The notes: a model not told the origin generated them from the sequence alone. A stretch of DNA of 33,195 nucleotides from Thermoplasmatota archaeon (GCA_036795795.1 DAIRED010000001.1:1-33195); one strand, 5' to 3'. Shown: positions 12,348 to 21,075, counted from the stretch's first letter. A program made the numbers and translations.

Positions 12348-13226
12348 TTGCCCGCGCATGTTTTATATGCCGCCAAACCGCTATCGTCGTCGAGGCAGGA
12401 TTTGGGCCAACCCGACATCAAGAGAAAGGTAGTCCTTCTGGGGGACAGCGCCGTCGGCAAGACGTCGCTCATCCGCAGGTTCGTCCAGGATTCGTTCGAC
12501 GACAGCTACATCTCCACCATCGGCGTGAAGATAACCAAGAAGGACGTCGAGGTGGCAAGGCCCGAAGGCAGCCTCGCCGTGACGATGATGATATGGGACA
12601 TCCTCGGCCAGCAAGGATACACGGGGACGCAGGCGATGAGCTACGTCGGGACGCAGGGAGCTATTTTCGTCGTCGATTTGACGAGGCCGGAGAGCCTCGA
12701 AAGCATCACGAAATACTGGCTTCCGGAGCTGTCAAAGGCGGTCGGAGAGGTGCCGCGCGTGCTGGTGGGCAATAAGGTCGACCTGCTCTCCGAGCGCAAG
12801 GTGACGGACGCCGACATCGCGCGCGTCGCATCGTCCATCGGAGCCGCGTGGTTCCTGTCTTCCGCAAAGACAGGGGAGGGCGTCGAACCGCTCTTCGCGA
12901 AGATGGCCGCCATCTCGTCGGCCGATTCCTGCAAAGGACCGAATGCCGAGAAACGCGGGGGGGCGCCTAGAGCCGTTCGCACCCTCACGGACGCGGCTGA
13001 CGAGGTGATGCTCGATTTCACCAGTTCCTTTGGCGACCAGGAGATAGCGATGGCGATGGTCCGGAGGCAGTTTGCCAAGGCGGGACTGGACATCTCCCAC
13101 CCGTCGAAACCGGCCCTCATGGAGTCCGTGCGCTTACTGGCCGAGGCCGAGCAGGGTTTCAAGTCTCCAGACGAGATACTTGCCAACCTCCACCGCAGAA
13201 GGGCAATCGTCGAGAAGTGCCAGTGA
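12348..13226 (+). CDS. Rab/Ras-like small GTPase with a ~100-aa C-terminal extension
   Basis: G1 is LLGDSAVGKTS (12441-12464), switch I is YISTIGV, G3 is WDILGQQ, G4 is GNKVDL and G5 is SSAKTG. Residues ~190-292 are an additional, mostly helical-looking region. The track start is TTG at 12348; TTG at 12402 fits better with the TATA-like ttttatat at 12361-12368. Confidence 0.85.
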   Translation: MPAHVLYAAKPLSSSRQDLGQPDIKRKVVLLGDSAVGKTSLIRRFVQDSFDDSYISTIGVKITKKDVEVARPEGSLAVTMMIWDILGQQGYTGTQAMSYVGTQGAIFVVDLTRPESLESITKYWLPELSKAVGEVPRVLVGNKVDLLSERKVTDADIARVASSIGAAWFLSSAKTGEGVEPLFAKMAAISSADSCKGPNAEKRGGAPRAVRTLTDAADEVMLDFTSSFGDQEIAMAMVRRQFAKAGLDISHPSKPALMESVRLLAEAEQGFKSPDEILANLHRRRAIVEKCQ

Positions 13227-13299
13227 GCCGGCGCAGCGGATGGGAGAGCGCGCTTCTTTATTCTAACGAAATTATTATTCAGCAGTAAATTCCCGCGCC

Positions 13300-14289
13300 T
13301 CAGCAGCCTTCGAACTTCAAACCCCGCTTGCGCAGCCTCGCCTCGAGCTTCTCCCACGTCGGCGGGTTGGTCTGGCACCCCTTCTCTTCCACGACGAAAC
13401 TCGCCGCGGCGGCGCCCGCCAGCGCGGAGTCGCGCAACCCCTTGCCCCGGTAGAGTCCCGCATAGAAACCGGCTCGGTATCCGTCCCCCGCACCTGTGGG
13501 ATCGACGAAGCGGTCCCCGGCGACAATCGGAATCTTGAAGGTGCCGTCGGCCGTCACGACCTCGCTGCCCTTCTTTCCCCTAGTCAGCACCAGAGTCGGG
13601 GCGTAATCCAGGAGGTCGGCCGTCCTGTGGAGGCCGAGGTACTTCAAGGCCCTCGCAGCCTCGCTCTCGTTGGCGAAGAATATGTTGGACCGCTCCAATA
13701 TCACTTCGAACATCTCCGGGGTGTAGACGTAGTGCAGCTCCTGTCCGGGGTCGAAGGAGACCTTCCGTCCCTTCTTCTTCGCGCGCGCTACGACCTTGGA
13801 ATAGTATTCCGGCCGGCCGGTGCAGATGTGGACGAAATCCGACGCATCGACTGAGTGCTTTGCAACCTCGAATGAGGCGGCGTCCTTCATCGGCCCCTGG
13901 TTGATGACCGCCACCTGGTCCTGGCCAGGCTCCGTCATTATCCAGCAAGTCGGCGTGGTGTAGCCTGGCACTGCCCTCAGGTCGGTCGAATCGACGCGCG
14001 CGCCGTCCAGCGCCTTCCGGAAGTCTGCGGGAAAGTCCTCGCCGACGAACGACGCGAGCGCAGCCGGGACTCCGAGGCACCCGGCGATGAAGGCTATGTT
14101 CGCCCCCGTGCCGCCACGGTAGGTGCGGTGGCTGGTGACCTCGATGGAAGTGTTGGGCTCGGGGAAGCGCGGGACCTCTATGATGTGGTCTATCGTGGTG
14201 TGGCCGAAGACGCCGACGAAGTTGGACGCGCGCGGCGGTTTGGGGATTGGCCCCGCCGCTGGCTTGGCGCGTTGCCTCTCCGCGGCCAC
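13300..14289 (-). CDS. PfkB-family carbohydrate/nucleoside kinase
   Basis: 329 aa with GGTGANIA and the C-terminal signature DPTGAGDGYRAGF. GTG start with a Pro/Ala-rich N-terminus, so the start is uncertain. It lies 29 nt downstream of ahcY on the same strand. Confidence 0.88.
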   Translation of the reverse strand: MAAERQRAKPAAGPIPKPPRASNFVGVFGHTTIDHIIEVPRFPEPNTSIEVTSHRTYRGGTGANIAFIAGCLGVPAALASFVGEDFPADFRKALDGARVDSTDLRAVPGYTTPTCWIMTEPGQDQVAVINQGPMKDAASFEVAKHSVDASDFVHICTGRPEYYSKVVARAKKKGRKVSFDPGQELHYVYTPEMFEVILERSNIFFANESEAARALKYLGLHRTADLLDYAPTLVLTRGKKGSEVVTADGTFKIPIVAGDRFVDPTGAGDGYRAGFYAGLYRGKGLRDSALAGAAAASFVVEEKGCQTNPPTWEKLEARLRKRGLKFEGC

Positions 14290-14318
14290 CGCGCTCCCGG
14301 CCTTCGCGCGCCTCCCGC

Positions 14319-15557
14319 TCAGGTCCCTTCCCTCCAGCTTCCCAGGTACTTCTTCTGCGCCTTGCTGAGCGAGTCGAGCTCTATCCCGTTCGCCTTCAGC
14401 GCCAGAAGCGCCACCCGGTCGTCCATCTCCTTCGGCACGTCGTAGACTCCCGGCTTCAGCTTCCTCCCGTTGACGGCCACGTGCTGGGCGCAGAGCGCCT
14501 GTATCGCGAAGCTCATGTCCATAATCTCGACGGGGTGGCCCTGGCCCGCGGCCAAGTTTACGAGCCGCCCCTCGGCCAGTAGGTACGCCTTCTTGCCGTC
14601 CTTGAACCTGTACTCGTCGACGAACTCGCGCACGCGACGAACCGATTTGGACATCTTGACGAGGTCAGTTTTCGAAACTTCGTTGTCGAAGTGGCCCGAG
14701 TTCGCCATGACGATGCCGTCCTTGGCAAGCCTGAGCTCGCGCTCGGTCACGATGTCCTTGCAGCCAGTCGCAGAGACGAGGAAGTCGGCCTTCGCAATCG
14801 CGCTCGCCATCGGCTCGACCTCGAATCCGTCCAGGTGCGCCTCGACGGCGCTGACCGGGTCCACCTCGCACACCGTGACGATGGCGCCCATGCCCCTCGC
14901 CCGCATGGCGATTCCGCGCCCGCACCAGCCGTAGCCGGCGACGACGAAGCGCCTGCCCGCGATGAGCAGGTTCGTGGCGTTGAGGATGCCGTCGAAGGTC
15001 GACTGGCCGGTCCCGTATCGGTTGTCGAAGAGGTGCTTCATCTTGGCGTTGTTCACTGCCATGACCGGGAATTTGAGGGCCCCTTCCTTGGCCATCGCCT
15101 CCAGCCTGATGATGCCGGTCGTGGTCTCCTCGTTCGCGCCGAGGATGCCATCCAGGAGCTCGGTGCGCTCAGTGTGCAGCAGAAAGATGAGGTCCGCGCC
15201 GTCGTCCACGACGATGTTCGGCTTGAGGTCCAGCACCTTGTGCAGGCTCTCGTAGTACTGCTCGTTCGTTTGCCACTTCTTGGCGTAGGTGTCCAGCTTG
15301 TGGTGCTTGTGGAGCGCAACGGCGACCGAGTCGTCGGTCGACAGCGGGTTGCAGCTGGTCAGGCGCACGGTGGCGCCCGCCTCCTTCAGGGTCAGTGCCA
15401 ACACGCCCGTCTTCGCCTCGACGTGCAGCGCCATGCCGACGCGCTTGCCCTTCAGAGACTTCTTCCTGACCATCTCCTCGCGCACGTTGGCCAGCACGTC
15501 CATGTGCGTCTTCGCCCATTCGAGTCGCAGCACCCCTCTCTGCATGAGGTCGTCCAT
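14319..15557 (-). CDS. ahcY: S-adenosyl-L-homocysteine hydrolase (adenosylhomocysteinase) family
   Basis: Canonical motifs are SCNPLSTDD, EETTTGI, NAKMKHLFDNRYGTGQS, the NAD motif VAGYGWCGRG, and GHFDNE. ATG 15557 is preceded by GGTG 7 nt upstream; the track start is GTG 15566. Confidence 0.95.
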   Translation of the reverse strand: MDDLMQRGVLRLEWAKTHMDVLANVREEMVRKKSLKGKRVGMALHVEAKTGVLALTLKEAGATVRLTSCNPLSTDDSVAVALHKHHKLDTYAKKWQTNEQYYESLHKVLDLKPNIVVDDGADLIFLLHTERTELLDGILGANEETTTGIIRLEAMAKEGALKFPVMAVNNAKMKHLFDNRYGTGQSTFDGILNATNLLIAGRRFVVAGYGWCGRGIAMRARGMGAIVTVCEVDPVSAVEAHLDGFEVEPMASAIAKADFLVSATGCKDIVTERELRLAKDGIVMANSGHFDNEVSKTDLVKMSKSVRRVREFVDEYRFKDGKKAYLLAEGRLVNLAAGQGHPVEIMDMSFAIQALCAQHVAVNGRKLKPGVYDVPKEMDDRVALLALKANGIELDSLSKAQKKYLGSWREGT

Positions 15558-15605
15558 AGGAGACACCTGAACGGTGGATAGGGGGGGAAGGGGAAAAAGG
15601 TTTTG

Positions 15606-15620
15606 GATATCAATGATATC
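15606..15620. repeat. 15-nt palindrome at the left edge of the AT-rich island (possible terminator of the island ORF and/or ahcY promoter element)
   Basis: gatatca-a-tgatatc has perfect 7-bp arms. On the minus strand it is followed by ccaaaaccttttt. It lies 66 nt past the stop of the 1046-aa ORF and about 50-60 nt upstream of the ahcY ATG. Confidence 0.4.
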
Positions 15621-15686
15621 ATTTTTTCCCCACTATCCGAATAAGGAATCGAACCGTTAATAATACTTCAGATGCAATCACCAGAT

Positions 15687-18600
15687 TCATTTTGAGTATA
15701 TTAACGATTGAATTATTAATGTTGATGGGTGATGTGGCCGTACTAGTAAATTGGAGCCTTTTTTATATATTTTTGCATTTAAACATGATTCGTCAAATGC
15801 AGCCATGGCCGATATATATCTGGGCAAGTTTTCGTTTATTAATGAGGAGGTTTCTTTGATATTCTTTGATAATTTTTCAGATGTTTTAAATGTAGTTTTT
15901 GAGCTAATCATTTGTGTACCGTCTGTATCTTGCTGGAAAAATAACGGCGACTTTTCAAAACATATTGATAAGAACTTAGCAATCATTATCCCTGGCGAAC
16001 AATTTTTATAAAATTTCTTTATTATCTCGCTAATTATATCGCATTTAAATTCACTTTTAATAATCCTAGAAGTTCTTCGATATTCAGATTCGATAATTAA
16101 TTCCCAATTTCTATACCACTTCATTTGTTTACTCAATAATTTTCCAATTAACAAGCGATCGTTTGATGGTACTAGAACATAATATCCTGGATGGCATACA
16201 CTTTTGTTTAGACTAACATAATATAATGGTCCACCAATTAAACCCGCACCAATATCTGCAATTATTTCATCCGCAAGCTCCGTTAATTTATTTCTTATTG
16301 CGAAGACTATTCTCTTATATTGCTTCTTCTTATCATATTTATTCAACGTTATTAGTATCAATTCTTGCAATCTTACCCTGAGATCATTTATTATATTTAT
16401 TGGATCGCTTGAATCTTCATGTCCAGCATCCGTTTGATCGATAATAAAATGCATAGCTTCGTGCGCAACTAAAGGAAAAGTATCGAACATATCTAATTTG
16501 GTATGTATTGGAACCATTAATAATTGATGGAATGAATCCACGGTAATTTGTGTTGGGTCACCAACGCCTGAAAAAGATGTGGACACAATCCCAGACCAGG
16601 ATCTTGAAAACTTATATGGGCAACAATATTTATAAACACTTGCTTTATTTTTATCATATGTAATCTTGTAAGAATATGTGTTGTCCTGATATATTAATTT
16701 ATTTTTTATTTGAATTACTTTAGTTAAATCGCCATCAATAGAATACCCATATCCGTTAATAATTTCTTTTATAGTTTGGGGATTTTGTAGCTCGTTTTCT
16801 GTATTATATTGAAATTGTAATATTTCACGATTTCTCATTATATGTCCATATTTACTTAACAACACTCCGCAGTAATCTTTCATGAGATTATTAAGGCCCA
16901 CAGAAATTAAATCTAAAAGGCCTGCACGTTCGCCAACTCGAATTATTGGATCCGAGATTGTGCCTAATTGTAACCCCTCTAATTGTTCATTATATGTTCC
17001 AATAACCGCATCAAGATTTTTATAATATCGACGGGCACTCATTCGTAATAAATACAATTTATCCCACATGTCTTTATTTATTTCCATTTGTTTCGCACTC
17101 TTACTGAATATCGTATTTAATGAATTAATATCATGATAAATTTCTTCGATAAAAAGGTCGAAAAAAGGAGTGGGTGATAAGAATTCAGCTTCATTAATTT
17201 TCCAAATATGTGACACTTGTTTTGCCCGATATAACAACCATTCAAGTTGAAATTTTAAATCGTATATTTGTCGATAATATGGATTTTTATGTAAATCGAA
17301 TCCCAGATTTCCCCAGCATTTTTCAGTGATTTCGCATACATTACCAGGAGTGTCGAACGCTAAACCGGTCTTTATTGATTTTGGTACTGTTCCTTTTTTT
17401 ACTAGGTCTCCGAACCATTGAGGAATTGTCACAACTCTACGAATGCCAGGCATTGTCCGTATTTTGTTGGTAGTATCATAAATAATCATTCTAGGGTTAG
17501 TCGACAATACTGAGATAGACCCATCCCAAAACCCCATTTCTTCAACACCCCGCATACCAGCTTTTGGAGAATATGGGTGTTTAAGAGCACCCATAATTTG
17601 ATTTAATTTATTATTATCATTTTCACCATCAGTTTCTATTAAAATATTATAAAACATTTTTTGTTTACTAGAAATTGGTTCGAGCATCCCATTTATATGA
17701 TTTTTAAAATCATGTCGAAATTTTGCATTTTCAGACCATAATTCACCCAATCGAATATGTGGATATTTTTGGTCTTTCAACTTTATAATACCTTTTTCTT
17801 TCGCCAACCGCTCAGCATCTGAATATATGTTCCAACAAACAATACTGGAAGTGTCATAAATTTCTGAACTTAACTCATCACGTAAGCGTGTGATAATTTC
17901 ATAGTAACTTGAGAGATTATTAAAACCCCATTGAACCATTATTCTCCATGAAGTAAAAGTAAGAAATGTTTGTGGGGCATCAATATCCGGATTGGCTTTT
18001 ATTGTTTTCCATATCTTATTAATAATTTTATTGACCCTAGTCATGGTTATTTTTCCATCGACTCTCTTCGGCATGATGAATGTATACACAAGGTAAGGAC
18101 TTTTTATTTGATGCCACCTTACCATATCTTCGAATATCGTTGTGGTTTTGTATTTTCCTAGATAATATTGAATACAAGGAACCCCAATTAAATCACCAAC
18201 TCCAGGTATCTTAGAAATTAATGCTCTTAATAAACTATCCCAATACAAATGTGTAGTTCCGGTAAATGCTAATAAATCACATTTCCCCATAACAATACCT
18301 TTATGAATTGATAAACGAAAATGGCACGGGAAGTAAGAGAAAAATCCACAATCTCGACCATAATGATTTTGAGCAGATTTGCACCTAGAACGGAGTAAAC
18401 CATAGTGTATATTTTCCATTTCATTATCATTTACTACAGTATCCATCCAAGAGATAAGTGTGAATAGCTTTTCTTTTGTAGAATTCGATAATTTTGAGCT
18501 TACCGCGAGTTCCGATACCATTAGAATCAAATTTGTATCAGAAATTACTTTTGTAGGAGATAGGCTATTTAAAAATTGTCGTATTTTACCATAACTTTTT

Positions 18601-18827
18601 GACTCAATAGAATATCGGCCATATAAATCATCGTGAATTTCCTTCCATAATTTCAAGCCTTCGGGGGATGTCCATACACCTGACGCTCCGACAATTTTAT
18701 ACGAAATTTTTTCGATTGAATCTAGAATTGATAATATGTCATGCCACCCAGCATTGTTTGTCGCAATCAAATTCAAAGAGAATAACCTAATGGACGTTAT
18801 ATACCTACTACCCATTTGTTTCCCCAC
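15687..18827 (-). CDS. Large orphan protein (1046 aa) with a C-terminal zincin-like metallopeptidase signature
   Basis: This is the only long ORF in the AT-rich DNA, where random stops are frequent, so it is almost certainly coding. HEAMH at residues 789-793 (16449-16463) is followed ~60 aa later by ELADEIIADIGAGLIGGPLYY. I saw no Walker A motif, no YxDD and no obvious TM helices. GTG at 18827; first ATG at 18815. Confidence 0.9.
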   Translation of the reverse strand: MGKQMGSRYITSIRLFSLNLIATNNAGWHDILSILDSIEKISYKIVGASGVWTSPEGLKLWKEIHDDLYGRYSIESKSYGKIRQFLNSLSPTKVISDTNLILMVSELAVSSKLSNSTKEKLFTLISWMDTVVNDNEMENIHYGLLRSRCKSAQNHYGRDCGFFSYFPCHFRLSIHKGIVMGKCDLLAFTGTTHLYWDSLLRALISKIPGVGDLIGVPCIQYYLGKYKTTTIFEDMVRWHQIKSPYLVYTFIMPKRVDGKITMTRVNKIINKIWKTIKANPDIDAPQTFLTFTSWRIMVQWGFNNLSSYYEIITRLRDELSSEIYDTSSIVCWNIYSDAERLAKEKGIIKLKDQKYPHIRLGELWSENAKFRHDFKNHINGMLEPISSKQKMFYNILIETDGENDNNKLNQIMGALKHPYSPKAGMRGVEEMGFWDGSISVLSTNPRMIIYDTTNKIRTMPGIRRVVTIPQWFGDLVKKGTVPKSIKTGLAFDTPGNVCEITEKCWGNLGFDLHKNPYYRQIYDLKFQLEWLLYRAKQVSHIWKINEAEFLSPTPFFDLFIEEIYHDINSLNTIFSKSAKQMEINKDMWDKLYLLRMSARRYYKNLDAVIGTYNEQLEGLQLGTISDPIIRVGERAGLLDLISVGLNNLMKDYCGVLLSKYGHIMRNREILQFQYNTENELQNPQTIKEIINGYGYSIDGDLTKVIQIKNKLIYQDNTYSYKITYDKNKASVYKYCCPYKFSRSWSGIVSTSFSGVGDPTQITVDSFHQLLMVPIHTKLDMFDTFPLVAHEAMHFIIDQTDAGHEDSSDPINIINDLRVRLQELILITLNKYDKKKQYKRIVFAIRNKLTELADEIIADIGAGLIGGPLYYVSLNKSVCHPGYYVLVPSNDRLLIGKLLSKQMKWYRNWELIIESEYRRTSRIIKSEFKCDIISEIIKKFYKNCSPGIMIAKFLSICFEKSPLFFQQDTDGTQMISSKTTFKTSEKLSKNIKETSSLINENLPRYISAMAAFDESCLNAKIYKKGSNLLVRPHHPSTLIIQSLIYSK

Positions 18828-18872
18828 ATATCATTTGACATATAGGAAATAACCGCATACTTAATAAAATTA

Positions 18873-18899
18873 TTTATAACATTTATAACGTTTATAACA
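18873..18899. repeat. Three tandem 9-bp repeats (TTTATAACA / TTTATAACG / TTTATAACA) upstream of the 1046-aa ORF; iteron/operator or multiple TATA boxes
   Basis: Read directly at 18873-18881, 18882-18890 and 18891-18899. On the coding (minus) strand each unit reads (T/C)GTTATAAA. The array lies 46-84 nt upstream of the candidate starts and 28 nt downstream of the wHTH gene stop. Confidence 0.8.
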
Positions 18900-18926
18900 G
18901 TAATCTCAGATGAATAATTATTATTC

Positions 18927-19310
18927 CTATTTTTTCCTTAATTTATATTTTGTCTTTCGCCCCTTCGCAGGCCTAATTTCATCGAGATAGTTATTATCCT
19001 TCAACCTCTGAATCAAACGAAGAGCGGCGGGATAGGAAATATTGCGCTCCTGAGATATATCTCCAATAGAAAGCCCATCTAATCCTTTTAACTCTGCGGC
19101 TTCGAATAACGACACTAATTCGCGGGCTCTTACCGTTATTTTTTTCCCATTATGTGCCTGAATATCCTCAATTGTTGTTTCTATCATTTTCAATCGAGTA
19201 TCAATGGATTCGATTCGCTTGGATAATTCCATATAAATTTTTGTCACGTTGAGACTGACAACCTCCACACTCCTCTGTATCTGATCTAGCTTGAGGTCTT
19301 TTTCTACCAT
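18927..19310 (-). CDS. Coiled-coil + winged-helix (MarR/ArsR-like) DNA-binding protein
   Basis: 127 aa. The N-terminal ~60 aa are heptad-like (LKLDQIQRSVEVVSLNVTKIYMELSKRIESIDTRLKMIETTIEDIQ). The C-terminus, LSIGDISQERNISYPAALRLIQRLKDNNYLDEIRPAKGRKTKYKL, fits an HTH plus wing. ATG start, TAG stop. Confidence 0.8.
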   Translation of the reverse strand: MVEKDLKLDQIQRSVEVVSLNVTKIYMELSKRIESIDTRLKMIETTIEDIQAHNGKKITVRARELVSLFEAAELKGLDGLSIGDISQERNISYPAALRLIQRLKDNNYLDEIRPAKGRKTKYKLRKK

Positions 19311-19442
19311 ATTTTTACCGCCTTTGAATAATCATCAGATATGAGTACCATAATATTTATATGTTATGTATATTTTTATAGATTACATAATTCAAACCTC
19401 ACTGTAATGATGTGTAAAAAATGATTTGGTTGCATGAATAAG

Positions 19443-19625
19443 TTATTTTTTTCTCCTTTTTATTATTATTCCCTCATCCTCCCAACATATAACTAACGAT
19501 TGGGGGATGTTCAATGGCTTCCTTAATGCTTTCTCAATTTCAATATAGGGGATAATCTCATCGAGTGGATACGCCATTTGCTCACTTTTATTCCCTAATT
19601 TATTATTCTTATTATTTTTTTTCAT
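19443..19625 (-). CDS. Small basic hypothetical protein (60 aa)
   Basis: An ATG ORF within the AT-rich island with Lys/Asn-rich termini. Its translation-initiation context resembles that of the wHTH gene (ATTCAAA..GG..GGT..TAAA-ATG). An internal ATG at residue 17 is an alternative start. Confidence 0.55.
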   Translation of the reverse strand: MKKNNKNNKLGNKSEQMAYPLDEIIPYIEIEKALRKPLNIPQSLVICWEDEGIIIKRRKK

Positions 19626-19647
19626 TTTACACCAACCCTTTTTGAAT

Positions 19648-19665
19648 ATAACATATATATGTTAT
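19648..19665. promoter_or_regulatory. Perfect 18-nt palindrome ATAACATATATATGTTAT upstream of the 60-aa ORF (operator overlapping a TATA-like core)
   Basis: All 9 base pairs of symmetry were verified by hand. It lies 23-40 nt upstream of ATG 19625. The half-site ATATGTTAT recurs at 19359-19367 upstream of the wHTH gene. Confidence 0.6.
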
Positions 19666-19787
19666 CTAATATTTAAACATTTTTACCCATTTGATTATAG
19701 GCCACCACCCTATAAAATCCAACGAGTTTATCCGCTTTTATCGTATATATTTCGCTACTCGCCATCAGAGATTCACCGAAATTTTCA

Positions 19788-19898
19788 TTATTTTCCAGTA
19801 CCACCACGCTCCCTCTCGCGCTCCCACGGCTTCTTCTCGAAGAAGTCCTTGTCCCCCGGCTCGTCGCCAAAGTACTGGCCGGCGAAGTTGGCGGTCAC
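19788..19898 (-). CDS. Possible 36-aa ORF coupled to the phosphopantothenate synthetase gene, ending exactly at the island border
   Basis: A GTG at 19898-19896 overlaps the upstream TGA (GTGA). The translation is (M)TANFAGQYFGDEPGDKDFFEKKPWERERERGGTGK. Its TAA stop lies in the first AT-rich bases of the island. Confidence 0.3.
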   Translation of the reverse strand: MTANFAGQYFGDEPGDKDFFEKKPWERERERGGTGK

Positions 19899-20638
19899 CG
19901 CCCGACGAGGTTGCGCGCCATCGCCCTTCCCGCCTCGGCGAGCGCGGCCGCGTTGTCGAAGCCGTCCGCGACCTTCCGCAGCCTCGATTCCGGCCACTTG
20001 CGCATCTCCGCGACCGCGCGGGCGACGTTCGGTACAGCGCGCGTCAGCTCGTCCACGATTGTGACGTGCGCCGCCCTTGCCGTCCGCGAAAGGGGGTTCA
20101 GGTCCACCGCAATTACAACTTTGCCGAACCTGACCAGCGCCTCGGCTCGGTCCCCGTCCTCCAGGGGGACGAAGACGATGTCGGCGGTGAAAATGCCTTC
20201 CTCGGAGCAGTGGGCCCGGGGCTGCGCCAGCTTTGGTATGAGCCTCGTCGCGTCGCGGCCGAGGACGCCCTTCGCCCCGAGCATCTCCATGTGCGCGACG
20301 ACTCGCCCGATGCGCGCCTCGCTCCTGTGGAACAGGTTGACTTCCAGCCTCGCCGGGACCGCCTTCGAGAGGGCTATCATCTCCCGACCGGCCAGCGCTG
20401 CCACGTTGCCGTTGACGGATAGCACGGGGTTTTTCGCCAGGACGAGATGCGCCGCCGCCGCCTTCGCCGCCCGCAGTGCGAACGGATGCGTGCGCTCCCC
20501 GAGCATGTAGTCGAATGCCTCGCCGCGCCCGTGGGCGATGAGGCCGGTCCGCGCGACAATCCCGTCGTCGGAGAGCTTGGAGAGAGATTCGCGGGTCTTC
20601 AGAGACTTGTACCGCGGGTGCGAGCGTGGCACATTCAT
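19895..20638 (-). CDS. Archaeal phosphopantothenate synthetase (4-phosphopantoate--beta-alanine ligase, COG1701 family)
   Basis: The track ORF (390 aa) was trimmed to ATG 20638. The family pattern is HPRYKSLKTRE...GLIAHGRGEAFDYMLGERT...PVLSVNGNVAAL...EVNLFHRS...VFVPLEDGDRAEAL...VIAVDLNPLSRTA...IVDELTRA. 247 aa. Confidence 0.88.
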   Translation of the reverse strand: MNVPRSHPRYKSLKTRESLSKLSDDGIVARTGLIAHGRGEAFDYMLGERTHPFALRAAKAAAAHLVLAKNPVLSVNGNVAALAGREMIALSKAVPARLEVNLFHRSEARIGRVVAHMEMLGAKGVLGRDATRLIPKLAQPRAHCSEEGIFTADIVFVPLEDGDRAEALVRFGKVVIAVDLNPLSRTARAAHVTIVDELTRAVPNVARAVAEMRKWPESRLRKVADGFDNAAALAEAGRAMARNLVGR

Positions 20639-21075
20639 TTCGGCCCCTCCGAGAAGATGTCCCTCTCCGACGGCCTCGCGTCGTCGCTGAGGTACTGGCC
20701 GAAGAAACCGCCGACGACGAGGCACACGAACGATGCCAGGATGACCGGCGATGCCATCCGCAGGACGTTGAGGACGACGTCCCCGGCGAACGTCCCGTCG
20801 ATTCCCGGCGCGGTCAGCGGCGCGAGCACCAGCAGCGAGGCGAAGCCGCACCCCGCGGCGAGCGCTCCGTGGTTGGTCACGATGACCCTGTCCATCCCGT
20901 CCACCATCAAGCCCGCCGCGAGCCCCAGGCCGAAGGCCACCAGCGCAGGCAGGTACATCGGCGCCCTCTCTGTGAGCGGGAAGGTGACGTTCGGAAGGAC
21001 GACGTAGAAGTACGTGTACCCGAGCGGGACGCCGCAGGCTAGCGCCACCAGTATCCAGACAATCCACCGTCTCAT
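20635..21075 (-). CDS. Small integral membrane protein (about four hydrophobic helices)
   Basis: Trimmed to ATG 21075 (MRRWIVWILVALACGVPLGY...). It has ATGA overlaps with both neighbours, at 21072-21075 and 20635-20638. Confidence 0.7.
   Translation of the reverse strand: MRRWIVWILVALACGVPLGYTYFYVVLPNVTFPLTERAPMYLPALVAFGLGLAAGLMVDGMDRVIVTNHGALAAGCGFASLLVLAPLTAPGIDGTFAGDVVLNVLRMASPVILASFVCLVVGGFFGQYLSDDARPSERDIFSEGPK

Follow-up and report, generated by a model that had tools for sequence, protein, structure and literature searches.

A low-G+C cassette in a Thermoplasmatota archaeon with a large, undescribed putative metalloenzyme and a linked winged-helix gene

How did a patch of A+T-rich DNA with three genes come to lie between two metabolic genes of a G+C-rich archaeal genome, and what might the very large protein that it encodes do? 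The question is raised by a stretch of 33,195 nucleotides (nt) from a Thermoplasmatota archaeon (GCA_036795795.1, DAIRED010000001.1:1-33195), hereafter the window, in which ahcY, encoding S-adenosylhomocysteine hydrolase, and the gene for phosphopantothenate synthetase (PPS) are separated by an island of about 4.2 kb. An earlier note, made from the sequence alone, had taken this island for a candidate defence-type module. According to the analysis presented here, the island is very probably a foreign insertion that carries a new protein family together with a linked regulator, and it may tentatively be read as a conflict-type module built on a regulated metallohydrolase.

The mean G+C content of the inserted segment is 32.5%, against 62.3% elsewhere in the window. 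In 200-nt windows, the G+C fraction is 0.60-0.71 in both flanks and falls to 0.25-0.41 inside the island before it recovers, and in 30-nt windows each border transition is completed within about 20-40 nt; the island is the sole compositional anomaly of the 33-kb window. The abrupt drop that the earlier note had described at both borders is therefore real, although its hand-counted 23-27% G+C corresponds to the minimum and not to the mean. Its account of the gene content holds as well: the list of open reading frames (ORFs) gives exactly three (60, 127 and 1046 aa), all co-oriented on the minus strand, and Pfam matches and gene calls place them between ahcY and PPS, which lie on the same strand as each other and as the island genes. 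No tRNA gene and no match to an Rfam family was found in the island, no terminal direct or inverted repeats occur at its ends, and no integrase, transposase, NTPase, reverse transcriptase or nuclease domain was detected in its proteins with Pfam, NCBIfam, PADLOC and PHROGs, in agreement with what had been noticed by eye. Having no integrase or transposase, no attachment-site (att) or terminal repeats and no tRNA target, the island does not qualify as one of the integrative mobile elements (provirus, integrative and conjugative element (ICE), insertion sequence or transposon).

The AhcY protein places the host in Thermoplasmatota, the best species representative (locus L011) being 88% identical, and this closest relative has an empty site in which only about 52 nt separate the PPS stop codon from the ahcY ATG. 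PPS, ahcY and pfkB are directly adjacent in about 25 more loci of Thermoplasmata and Methanomassiliicoccales, and in 80 related genomes no homologue of an island protein was found less than 10 kb from ahcY. Because L011 has an empty site and the PPS-ahcY adjacency is widespread, the island is a true insertion; the comparison with relatives lacking the insert, which the earlier note had proposed, thus comes out in its favour. Similarity to L011 restarts about 45 nt upstream of the ahcY ATG (AAAACC...GGTGTCTCC), right after an inverted repeat at the border, which indicates that the ancestral ahcY promoter region was kept, with the foreign DNA placed ahead of this promoter and after the PPS stop codon. 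The PPS-ahcY junction was also considered as a general hotspot for islands and rejected as such: the gaps of 1-6 kb in other Thermoplasmata (L022, L023, L037, L039, L040, L042, L047, L049, L055, L063 and L064) hold genes of native composition, namely pst/phoU genes (pstSCAB-phoU), a PHP-family hydrolase or a small GTPase, and not islands. Since native genes expand the interval in these loci, the junction is rearrangement-prone even without foreign DNA.

An abrupt switch in composition would also be produced if the DNA of an A+T-rich organism had been joined to a G+C-rich archaeal contig during assembly, a concern that the earlier note had raised. The identical 1042-aa protein is, however, recorded on 16 contigs; the ten that were fetched (assembled by MEGAHIT, SPAdes, Logan and JGI from different samples) represent one locus at 99.9-100% identity, and both junctions are crossed by six of them. 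The source runs include SRR3989313 and SRR3989315. Because the junctions recur in independent assemblies, at this identity and from at least four assemblers or pipelines, the island is not chimeric, and an assembly artefact is practically impossible. Contigs L005-L010, with their differing gene calls, had been considered as a second genomic context, but their locus is identical. Among the eight contigs that could be aligned cleanly, the seven single-nucleotide polymorphisms are all confined to the flanks, and the island is free of them; the numbers are small, and the pattern fits a fixed, possibly recent acquisition.

The large protein, in which the earlier note had recognised no family, has no match in four libraries of hidden Markov models (Pfam, NCBIfam, PADLOC and PHROGs) and none among the sequences of the PDB. 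The start of its gene at ATG 18815 is likelier than the alternative upstream GTG, as it is used by the gene callers and has a GGGG Shine-Dalgarno-like motif upstream (P0001). When 5.8 billion clusters were searched through a word index, the protein retrieved nothing but itself, and so did an alignment of 39 sequences, low-complexity words having swamped the candidates. An exhaustive phmmer search of 1.84 billion representatives recovered 38 distant relatives, archaeal and bacterial and mostly of 850-1100 aa, and the family is defined here as these 39 clusters including the query; 19 proteins (query included) score below 1e-10, and the best relative (P0006) reaches 2e-90 at 33% identity. No Pfam domain passes its threshold in any of the 39 members. 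A profile scan with a tighter family alignment found one 2.3-kb contig in the metagenomes and nothing in the viral set. Judged from these sequence comparisons, the large protein is the founder of an undescribed family and does not belong to a well-characterised housekeeping family.

The metallopeptidase-like motif that the earlier note had placed near residue 790 is HEAMH (residues 789-793), situated in the middle of a predicted helix (780-799), with H, E and H invariant in 39/39 members. It forms part of a putative catalytic core in which beta-strands are followed by the HEAMH helix (16449-16463) and then by an EIIAD helix (16254-16268; predicted helix 848-865), so that an ExxxD stands about 61 residues after HExxH, with E854 conserved in at least 90% of the members and D858 in all. 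Invariant across the family are W744, G746, P773, H789, E790, H793 and D858; E854, P867, R891, W908, R1030 and S1041 are near-invariant, and further signature blocks read HEAAHF, ELxxDxxAxLIGGPxY, PxWLRxxLG and, at the C-terminus, RPxYPxGRxxHSLxYS. The AlphaFold2 model built with the family alignment has a predicted template modelling score (pTM) of 0.81 at full length, and the C-terminal half modelled alone reaches a predicted local distance difference test score (pLDDT) of 84 and a pTM of 0.86. In gluzincins (families M4, M13 and M48), the HExxH helix is followed by a Glu ligand in a downstream ExxxD helix, and the order of elements predicted for the HExxH half is the one expected for a gluzincin. 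The C-terminal domain would accordingly resemble a metal-dependent hydrolase, most likely a gluzincin-style peptidase. In Pfam scans, one of 18 members had a sub-threshold match to MPTase-PolyVal (E 0.006). The peptidase assignment is made at the level of the motif because no profile or fold match to peptidases was obtained; of the zincin-type label given in the earlier note, the motif and the helix and strand topology stand, but fold and profile searches find no peptidase.

Toward the N-terminus, several comparisons, together with the predicted secondary structure of repeated beta-alpha-beta-beta-alpha-beta units, converge, though weakly, on tandem ferredoxin-like modules. The family profile matches AsnC/Lrp RAM domains among PDB sequences at two profile positions (E 5e-4 to 2e-3), and Pfam AsnC_trans_reg (PF01037) is found in two of the 39 members (best E 0.0018, under the gathering score). 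The Foldseek search with the full-length model is dominated by ferredoxin-like repeats, with the double-ferredoxin fold of HemQ/chlorite dismutase at E 3e-3 and Lrp/AsnC at E 0.04-0.09 (probability at least 0.98). This region may thus be a putative ligand-sensing or oligomerisation region. Between the modules and the HExxH half lie three long helices that contain the most conserved block of the family, YNE(R/Q)LEG...EPxxRxGERAG, which reads TYNEQLEGLQLGTISDPIIRVGERAGLLD in the window (16911-16997).

The gene for the 127-aa winged helix-turn-helix (wHTH) protein lies 100 nt upstream of the large gene. Its product has sub-threshold matches to MarR_2, HTH_24 and Rrf2 in Pfam, its orthologues match Penicillinase_R and PadR, and in PADLOC it matches only the wHTH tail of SoFic (2e-5); a tblastn search restricted to phages gave no match. 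Homologues adjoin the two closest homologues of the large protein, in L091 (123 aa, E 2e-18) and L092 (123 aa, E 4e-12), and a profile of the three wHTH proteins found five clusters among the 5.8 billion, which are those three and two 79-aa proteins, one of them (P0046) encoded on a contig of 45.8 kb. This wHTH family is practically confined to the cassette, and no other evidence speaks as strongly for its functional link to the large protein. For the 60-aa protein, none of Pfam, NCBIfam, PADLOC and PHROGs gave a family match; L091 has a 53-aa ORF that is possibly homologous (35% identity over 37 aa, with a shared IEIEK...WE), at E 0.003 in a tiny database only. As for the linkage of the small genes, which the earlier note had wished to see followed in other genomes, it holds for the wHTH gene beside the two closest homologues, whereas neither the wHTH nor the 60-aa gene was detected at the distant, mostly bacterial loci.

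The promoter regions of the cassette contain short repeats. The window has six matches to GTTATAAA where 0.5 are expected, three of them in tandem upstream of the large gene, and these units are candidate operators and/or TATA boxes. The perfect palindrome ATAACATATATATGTTAT upstream of the 60-aa gene recurs in degenerate form upstream of the 127-aa gene (19350-19367), and in L091 two ATAACC-N16-GGTTAT palindromes stand directly upstream of the 53-aa gene, while L092 has none. The GTTAT/ATAAC half-sites suggest a shared operator, and they could also be TATA elements.

Genomic contexts were obtained for 11 further members of the family. Low-G+C patches of 3.3-4.4 kb that hold the large gene and a small upstream gene are found in L093, L094, L097, L098, L100 and L101, and a low-G+C patch is also present at contig ends in L091 and L102. 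In most loci a small, poorly conserved ORF (57-108 aa) lies directly upstream of the large gene; those of the bacterial homologues resemble, to a detectable degree, neither one another nor the small proteins of the window. Border repeats or target-site duplications of at least 9 nt were found at none of the low-G+C patches in seven loci. In a bacterial subclade, L096 (2219-2791) and L101 (13356-13931), a sigma70_r4 protein resembling extracytoplasmic function (ECF) sigma factors and a weakly similar protein of about 190 aa stand beside the large gene, which suggests that a sigma70_r4 partner replaced the wHTH there. Mobility genes occur near two members, L100 having a tyrosine integrase and L096 a transposase. 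With PADLOC, defence genes were found among the 64 neighbours in only two of about 11 independent loci, a sample too small for an enrichment statistic: L094, with a Type IIG/ISP restriction-modification system, HicAB and VapB, and L092, with DpnI-like, NERD/PDC-M16A and SIR2_2 proteins. Taken together, the cassette is a horizontally transferred low-G+C accessory unit present in several hosts. The closest homologue (L091) comes from a sample of Mai Po wetland sediment (PMC6461988).

Some neighbours of the family members are recorded here in their own right. L092 (1-9000 and 15000-22610) is a dense archaeal neighbourhood of defence type, with three DpnI-like proteins, two stand-alone RNase III proteins, SIR2_2 and a ResIII/SWI2-SNF2 helicase, and it is its NERD protein that matches PADLOC PDC-M16A. 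In the same locus (12735-14510), the 3' end of the large gene abuts a convergent, divergent-sequence AdoHcyase-like/cupin fusion (30% identity). An AdoHcyase-family neighbour is thus seen in two of three archaeal-type loci, which could be due to chance, to an insertion preference or to a functional link. Two distant members adjoin genes for ThiS (ubiquitin-like; L102:642-890) and ThiF (E1-like, with a weak match to PADLOC E1-E2; L103:8672-9559); these could be coincidental genes of cofactor biosynthesis, or they could point to a link with ubiquitin-like conjugation.

How might such a cassette work? Acquired horizontally, the self-contained accessory cassette entered the archaeal genome in the space that separates the PPS stop codon from the ahcY promoter. 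The 127-aa wHTH protein would bind the GTTAT-type repeats and palindromes in the cassette promoters and keep the cassette repressed, until a trigger sensed by the N-terminal RAM/ferredoxin-like modules activates the hydrolase; the three helices would form a stalk between the sensor half and the HExxH domain. Pairs of an HTH repressor and a sensor metallopeptidase are known in which the signal-sensing peptidase cleaves the repressor (10.1101/2022.04.27.489752, PMC12828697, PMC10904395, PMC10233336). The activated hydrolase may likewise cleave its own regulator (as in ImmA/ImmR, CapP/CapH and IrrE/DdrO), or it may cleave cellular or viral proteins. As there is no other cargo for derepression to serve, the probable role of the large protein is that of effector in a conflict module (defence, abortive infection or addiction). 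A rare family that is both archaeal and bacterial and occurs repeatedly in cassette-sized patches of foreign composition bears the signature of conflict-maintained genes and not of housekeeping. By analogy with these systems, a regulated metallohydrolase module of the conflict type is the reading that we favour tentatively, though it stops just short of being probable; metal binding, peptidase chemistry, ligand sensing, operator binding and conflict function are what we infer for it. From the defence-type reading of the earlier note, the foreign insert, its accessory nature, the new family, the motif and the wHTH linkage have stood, whereas a context of defence islands is confined to the two loci mentioned, and neither the large protein nor the 60-aa protein matches a defence model of PADLOC-DB v2.

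Several results weigh against a conflict-type metallohydrolase. Foldseek with the C-terminal half found no neighbour in the PDB (best E 1.2, template modelling (TM) score <0.2) or in BFVD; a profile of the core alone (residues 738-905) found no peptidase in PDB sequences or Pfam; hhalign against HtpX and thermolysin aligned only the HExxH, at probabilities of 2-5%; and no peptidase or other enzyme family was assigned by Pfam, NCBIfam, PADLOC, PHROGs, PDB profiles or Foldseek. The RAM-like matches are weak, with E-values of 1e-3 to 1e-2, the wHTH protein was found only with the three closest members, and the GTTAT motifs are short, lie in A+T-rich DNA, are missing from L092 and may be plain TATA boxes. 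Most homologue loci lie outside defence islands, among ordinary genes, and no relatives of the large protein were found on sequenced phages, plasmids or viral contigs (by tblastn and the viral scan). Finally, HExxH enzymes exist that are not hydrolases and perform oxidative chemistry on small precursor peptides (PMC12636437).

The HExxH domain might accordingly be a peptide-modifying metalloenzyme of the alpha-ketoglutarate/Fe(II) type, for which the small upstream gene would provide the substrate and the winged helix would act in the manner of a recognition element (RRE) of peptides made by the ribosome and modified after translation (RiPPs). The small, poorly conserved ORF directly upstream in most loci fits this arrangement, and such an enzyme (8s5f) is the sole HExxH protein that the PDB fold search listed, although with E 4 and probability 0.09 the match is insignificant. 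NCBIfam, which presumably holds the HEXXH-motif-domain model behind IPR026337, gives no match. Furthermore, the cassette contains no transporter, leader peptidase or other tailoring gene, its wHTH resembles the DNA-binding MarR, PadR and BlaI families, and the downstream ExxxD is a gluzincin pattern, which together make a peptide-modifying function quite improbable. It is likewise very unlikely that the island is what is left, in inert form, of a larger integrated element (provirus, plasmid or ICE) that lost its mobility genes and retains cargo without current function in this host: all three ORFs are intact, including a 3.1-kb frame in DNA of 32% G+C where stop codons arise easily, as are all family motifs, and the cassette is identical in 16 contigs from several samples. 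Such a remnant would account for the missing integrase, att repeats and tRNA target, for the integrase (L100) or transposase (L096) that adjoins other members, and for an unexplained G+C-rich stub of about 100 nt at one border of the island; however, the large gene recurs with its small gene(s) in 3.3-4.4 kb in unrelated hosts, which argues that the cassette, and not a larger element, is the selected unit.

More attention is due to the possibility that a sensor-protease and its regulator have an ordinary physiological role, for example in the response to nutrients or stress. The RAM-like modules would then bind a metabolite (an amino acid or a compound related to S-adenosylhomocysteine), and the protease would inactivate the wHTH protein, or in bacteria a sigma or anti-sigma factor, and thereby switch genes elsewhere in the genome. 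Lrp/AsnC RAM modules classically bind amino acids, and modules of the RAM/AsnC type are present here, with weak matches. A regulator recurs beside the large gene (wHTH in archaea, sigma70_r4 in L096 and L101), most loci lie among metabolic genes, and an AdoHcyase-family gene is the neighbour in two of the three archaeal loci, although the adjacency in L092 may be chance because the gene is a divergent paralogue. With an extremely sparse and patchy distribution, a foreign composition and absence from the closest relatives, the cassette does not look like part of a host response, and control of a host regulon is unlikely because the wHTH family is private to the cassette. We therefore regard a physiological role as unlikely, and retain the conflict-type metallohydrolase as the preferred reading of the cassette.

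The coordinates of the features in the window are collected in Table 1.

Table 1. Features of the low-G+C island and its flanks, in positions of the 33,195-nt window
Feature	Coordinates	Strand	Basis
ahcY (S-adenosylhomocysteine hydrolase), flank	14319..15566	-	Pfam AdoHcyase 1e-50; 88% identity to the L011 orthologue; host composition
Inverted repeat GGGGAAAAA...TTTTTCCCC, 9-bp stem, enclosing two GATATC sites	15590..15632	.	Sequence; at the island/ahcY border
Low-G+C inserted segment	15600..19797	.	Composition profiles; missing from L011 and about 25 Thermoplasmata junctions; junctions present in independent assemblies
Large gene	15687..18827	-	ORF list; 1046 aa from GTG 18827, or 1042 aa from ATG 18815
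Putative metal-dependent catalytic core, residues 738-905	16113..16616	-	Alignment; pLDDT mostly >90
Three long helices, residues ~516-661	16845..17282	-	Alignment blocks, model, translation
Putative tandem ferredoxin-like (beta-alpha-beta-beta-alpha-beta) modules, residues ~174-470	17418..18308	-	Weak, convergent profile and fold matches; secondary structure
Three tandem GTTATAAA units, 9-nt period	18873..18898	-	~45-70 nt upstream of the large gene
127-aa protein with a coiled coil (N-terminal), a winged helix (C-terminal) and the conserved block ISYPAA	18927..19310	-	Weak HMM matches; homologues in L091 and L092
60-aa basic protein	19443..19625	-	ORF list; gene callers in several assemblies
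Perfect palindrome ATAACATATATATGTTAT	19648..19665	.	22-40 nt upstream of the 60-aa gene
G+C-rich stub, ~100 nt after the PPS stop, 36-aa ORF VTANFAGQYFGDEPGDKDFFEKKPWERERERGGTGK	19788..19898	-	Called in L002 and L003
PPS (phosphopantothenate synthetase), flank, 247 aa	19895..20638	-	Pfam PPS_PS 2e-67; gene calls; 82% identity to the L011 orthologue

Both ends of the island show further details. In the G+C-rich stub on the PPS side, the start of the 36-aa ORF overlaps the PPS stop codon (GTGA) and its stop codon lies exactly at the border between G+C-rich and A+T-rich DNA. L011 lacks the stub, and 80 related loci gave no homologue of it; it may have been left behind by a host gene that was disrupted, or it may have come in together with the island. 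On the ahcY side, the border inverted repeat is followed by a run of C, and it is possibly the terminator of the large gene or a scar of the insertion.

In the flanks, the mechanically derived 390-aa ORF of PPS (19895-21067, minus strand) over-extends upstream, the real product starting at 20638, and the over-extended part overlaps two small genes (146 and 226 aa) that resemble membrane proteins and have no family matches. Downstream of pfkB, at about 12348-13226 on the plus strand, lies a gene for a 292-aa small GTPase of the Ras/Arf/Roc type (Pfam Arf, Ras, Roc); a similar small GTPase sits between PPS and ahcY in L063 and L064.

The nature of the HExxH domain matters here. As a signal-activated protease under a private repressor, it would extend the logic of ImmA, CapP and IrrE to a much larger, ligand-sensing architecture, in a tractable three-gene unit; if it is not a protease, it would represent a new HExxH enzyme fold. 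That the cassette is the first known case of a new class of compact, horizontally mobile conflict modules in archaea and bacteria, with an effector of roughly 1000 aa combining tandem RAM-like sensors with an HExxH metalloenzyme fold new to the PDB, under private wHTH control in the archaeal branch, is a rather doubtful proposition. If true, it would add a new catalytic fold with HExxH and a new immune or addiction mechanism, one of a small number whose first description would come from an archaeon; the accessory and defence genes of archaea have been explored much less than those of bacteria.

Among known systems, the RAM domains of Lrp/AsnC and the stand-alone RAM-domain proteins are weakly matched, by profile and fold, by the modules in the N-terminal half of the large protein. 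Lrp/AsnC proteins have one copy together with an HTH, whereas several tandem copies and an enzyme domain would be combined here, and the matches of the large protein stay below the family thresholds. With the gluzincins (thermolysin, M4; neprilysin, M13; Ste24/HtpX, M48), the family shares an invariant HExxH in a predicted helix after beta-strands and an E-x-x-x-D 61 residues further on, but the large protein has no similarity in sequence profile or fold beyond the motif, nor a PDB neighbour (TM <0.2). The alpha-ketoglutarate-dependent HExxH hydroxylases of RiPP pathways (ChlBH, BpmH, PflC/PosC; IPR026337) are comparable in that an HExxH protein stands beside a small ORF; unlike them, the large protein has no NCBIfam or Pfam match and only an insignificant fold match, and its cassette has no accessory genes of the RiPP type. 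Single- and two-gene defence or abortive-infection cassettes are similar in being compact, of foreign composition, patchily distributed in archaea and bacteria and without mobility genes of their own, and members of the family occasionally have restriction-modification, toxin-antitoxin, NERD or SIR2 neighbours; they differ in that the large protein has no PADLOC model and that two of about 11 loci lie in defence neighbourhoods.

The closest parallel in gene arrangement is with ImmR/ImmA (ICEBs1-type elements), CapH/CapP (in cyclic-oligonucleotide-based antiphage signalling systems (CBASS) and other immune operons) and DdrO/IrrE (PprI, Deinococcus), in which an HExxH protein is likewise paired with a small HTH or wHTH regulator on accessory or mobile DNA. 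As for ImmA, IrrE and CapP, a cognate HTH gene is adjacent to the large gene, here of the wHTH type. No match to Peptidase_M78/COG2856 was obtained with Pfam, NCBIfam or PADLOC at E up to 1, and there was none in the 39 members. ImmA/CapP/IrrE-type peptidases measure roughly 150-300 aa, whereas the HExxH protein of the cassette has about 1040 aa, with RAM-like repeats and a long helical stalk. Their regulators have an HTH of the XRE/cI type, unlike the coiled coil and MarR/PadR-like winged helix found here, and the cassette has no downstream cargo genes to derepress. A regulator and a sensor metalloenzyme on mobile DNA would thus be of a known kind, while the protein family and the fold of its putative catalytic domain are undescribed.

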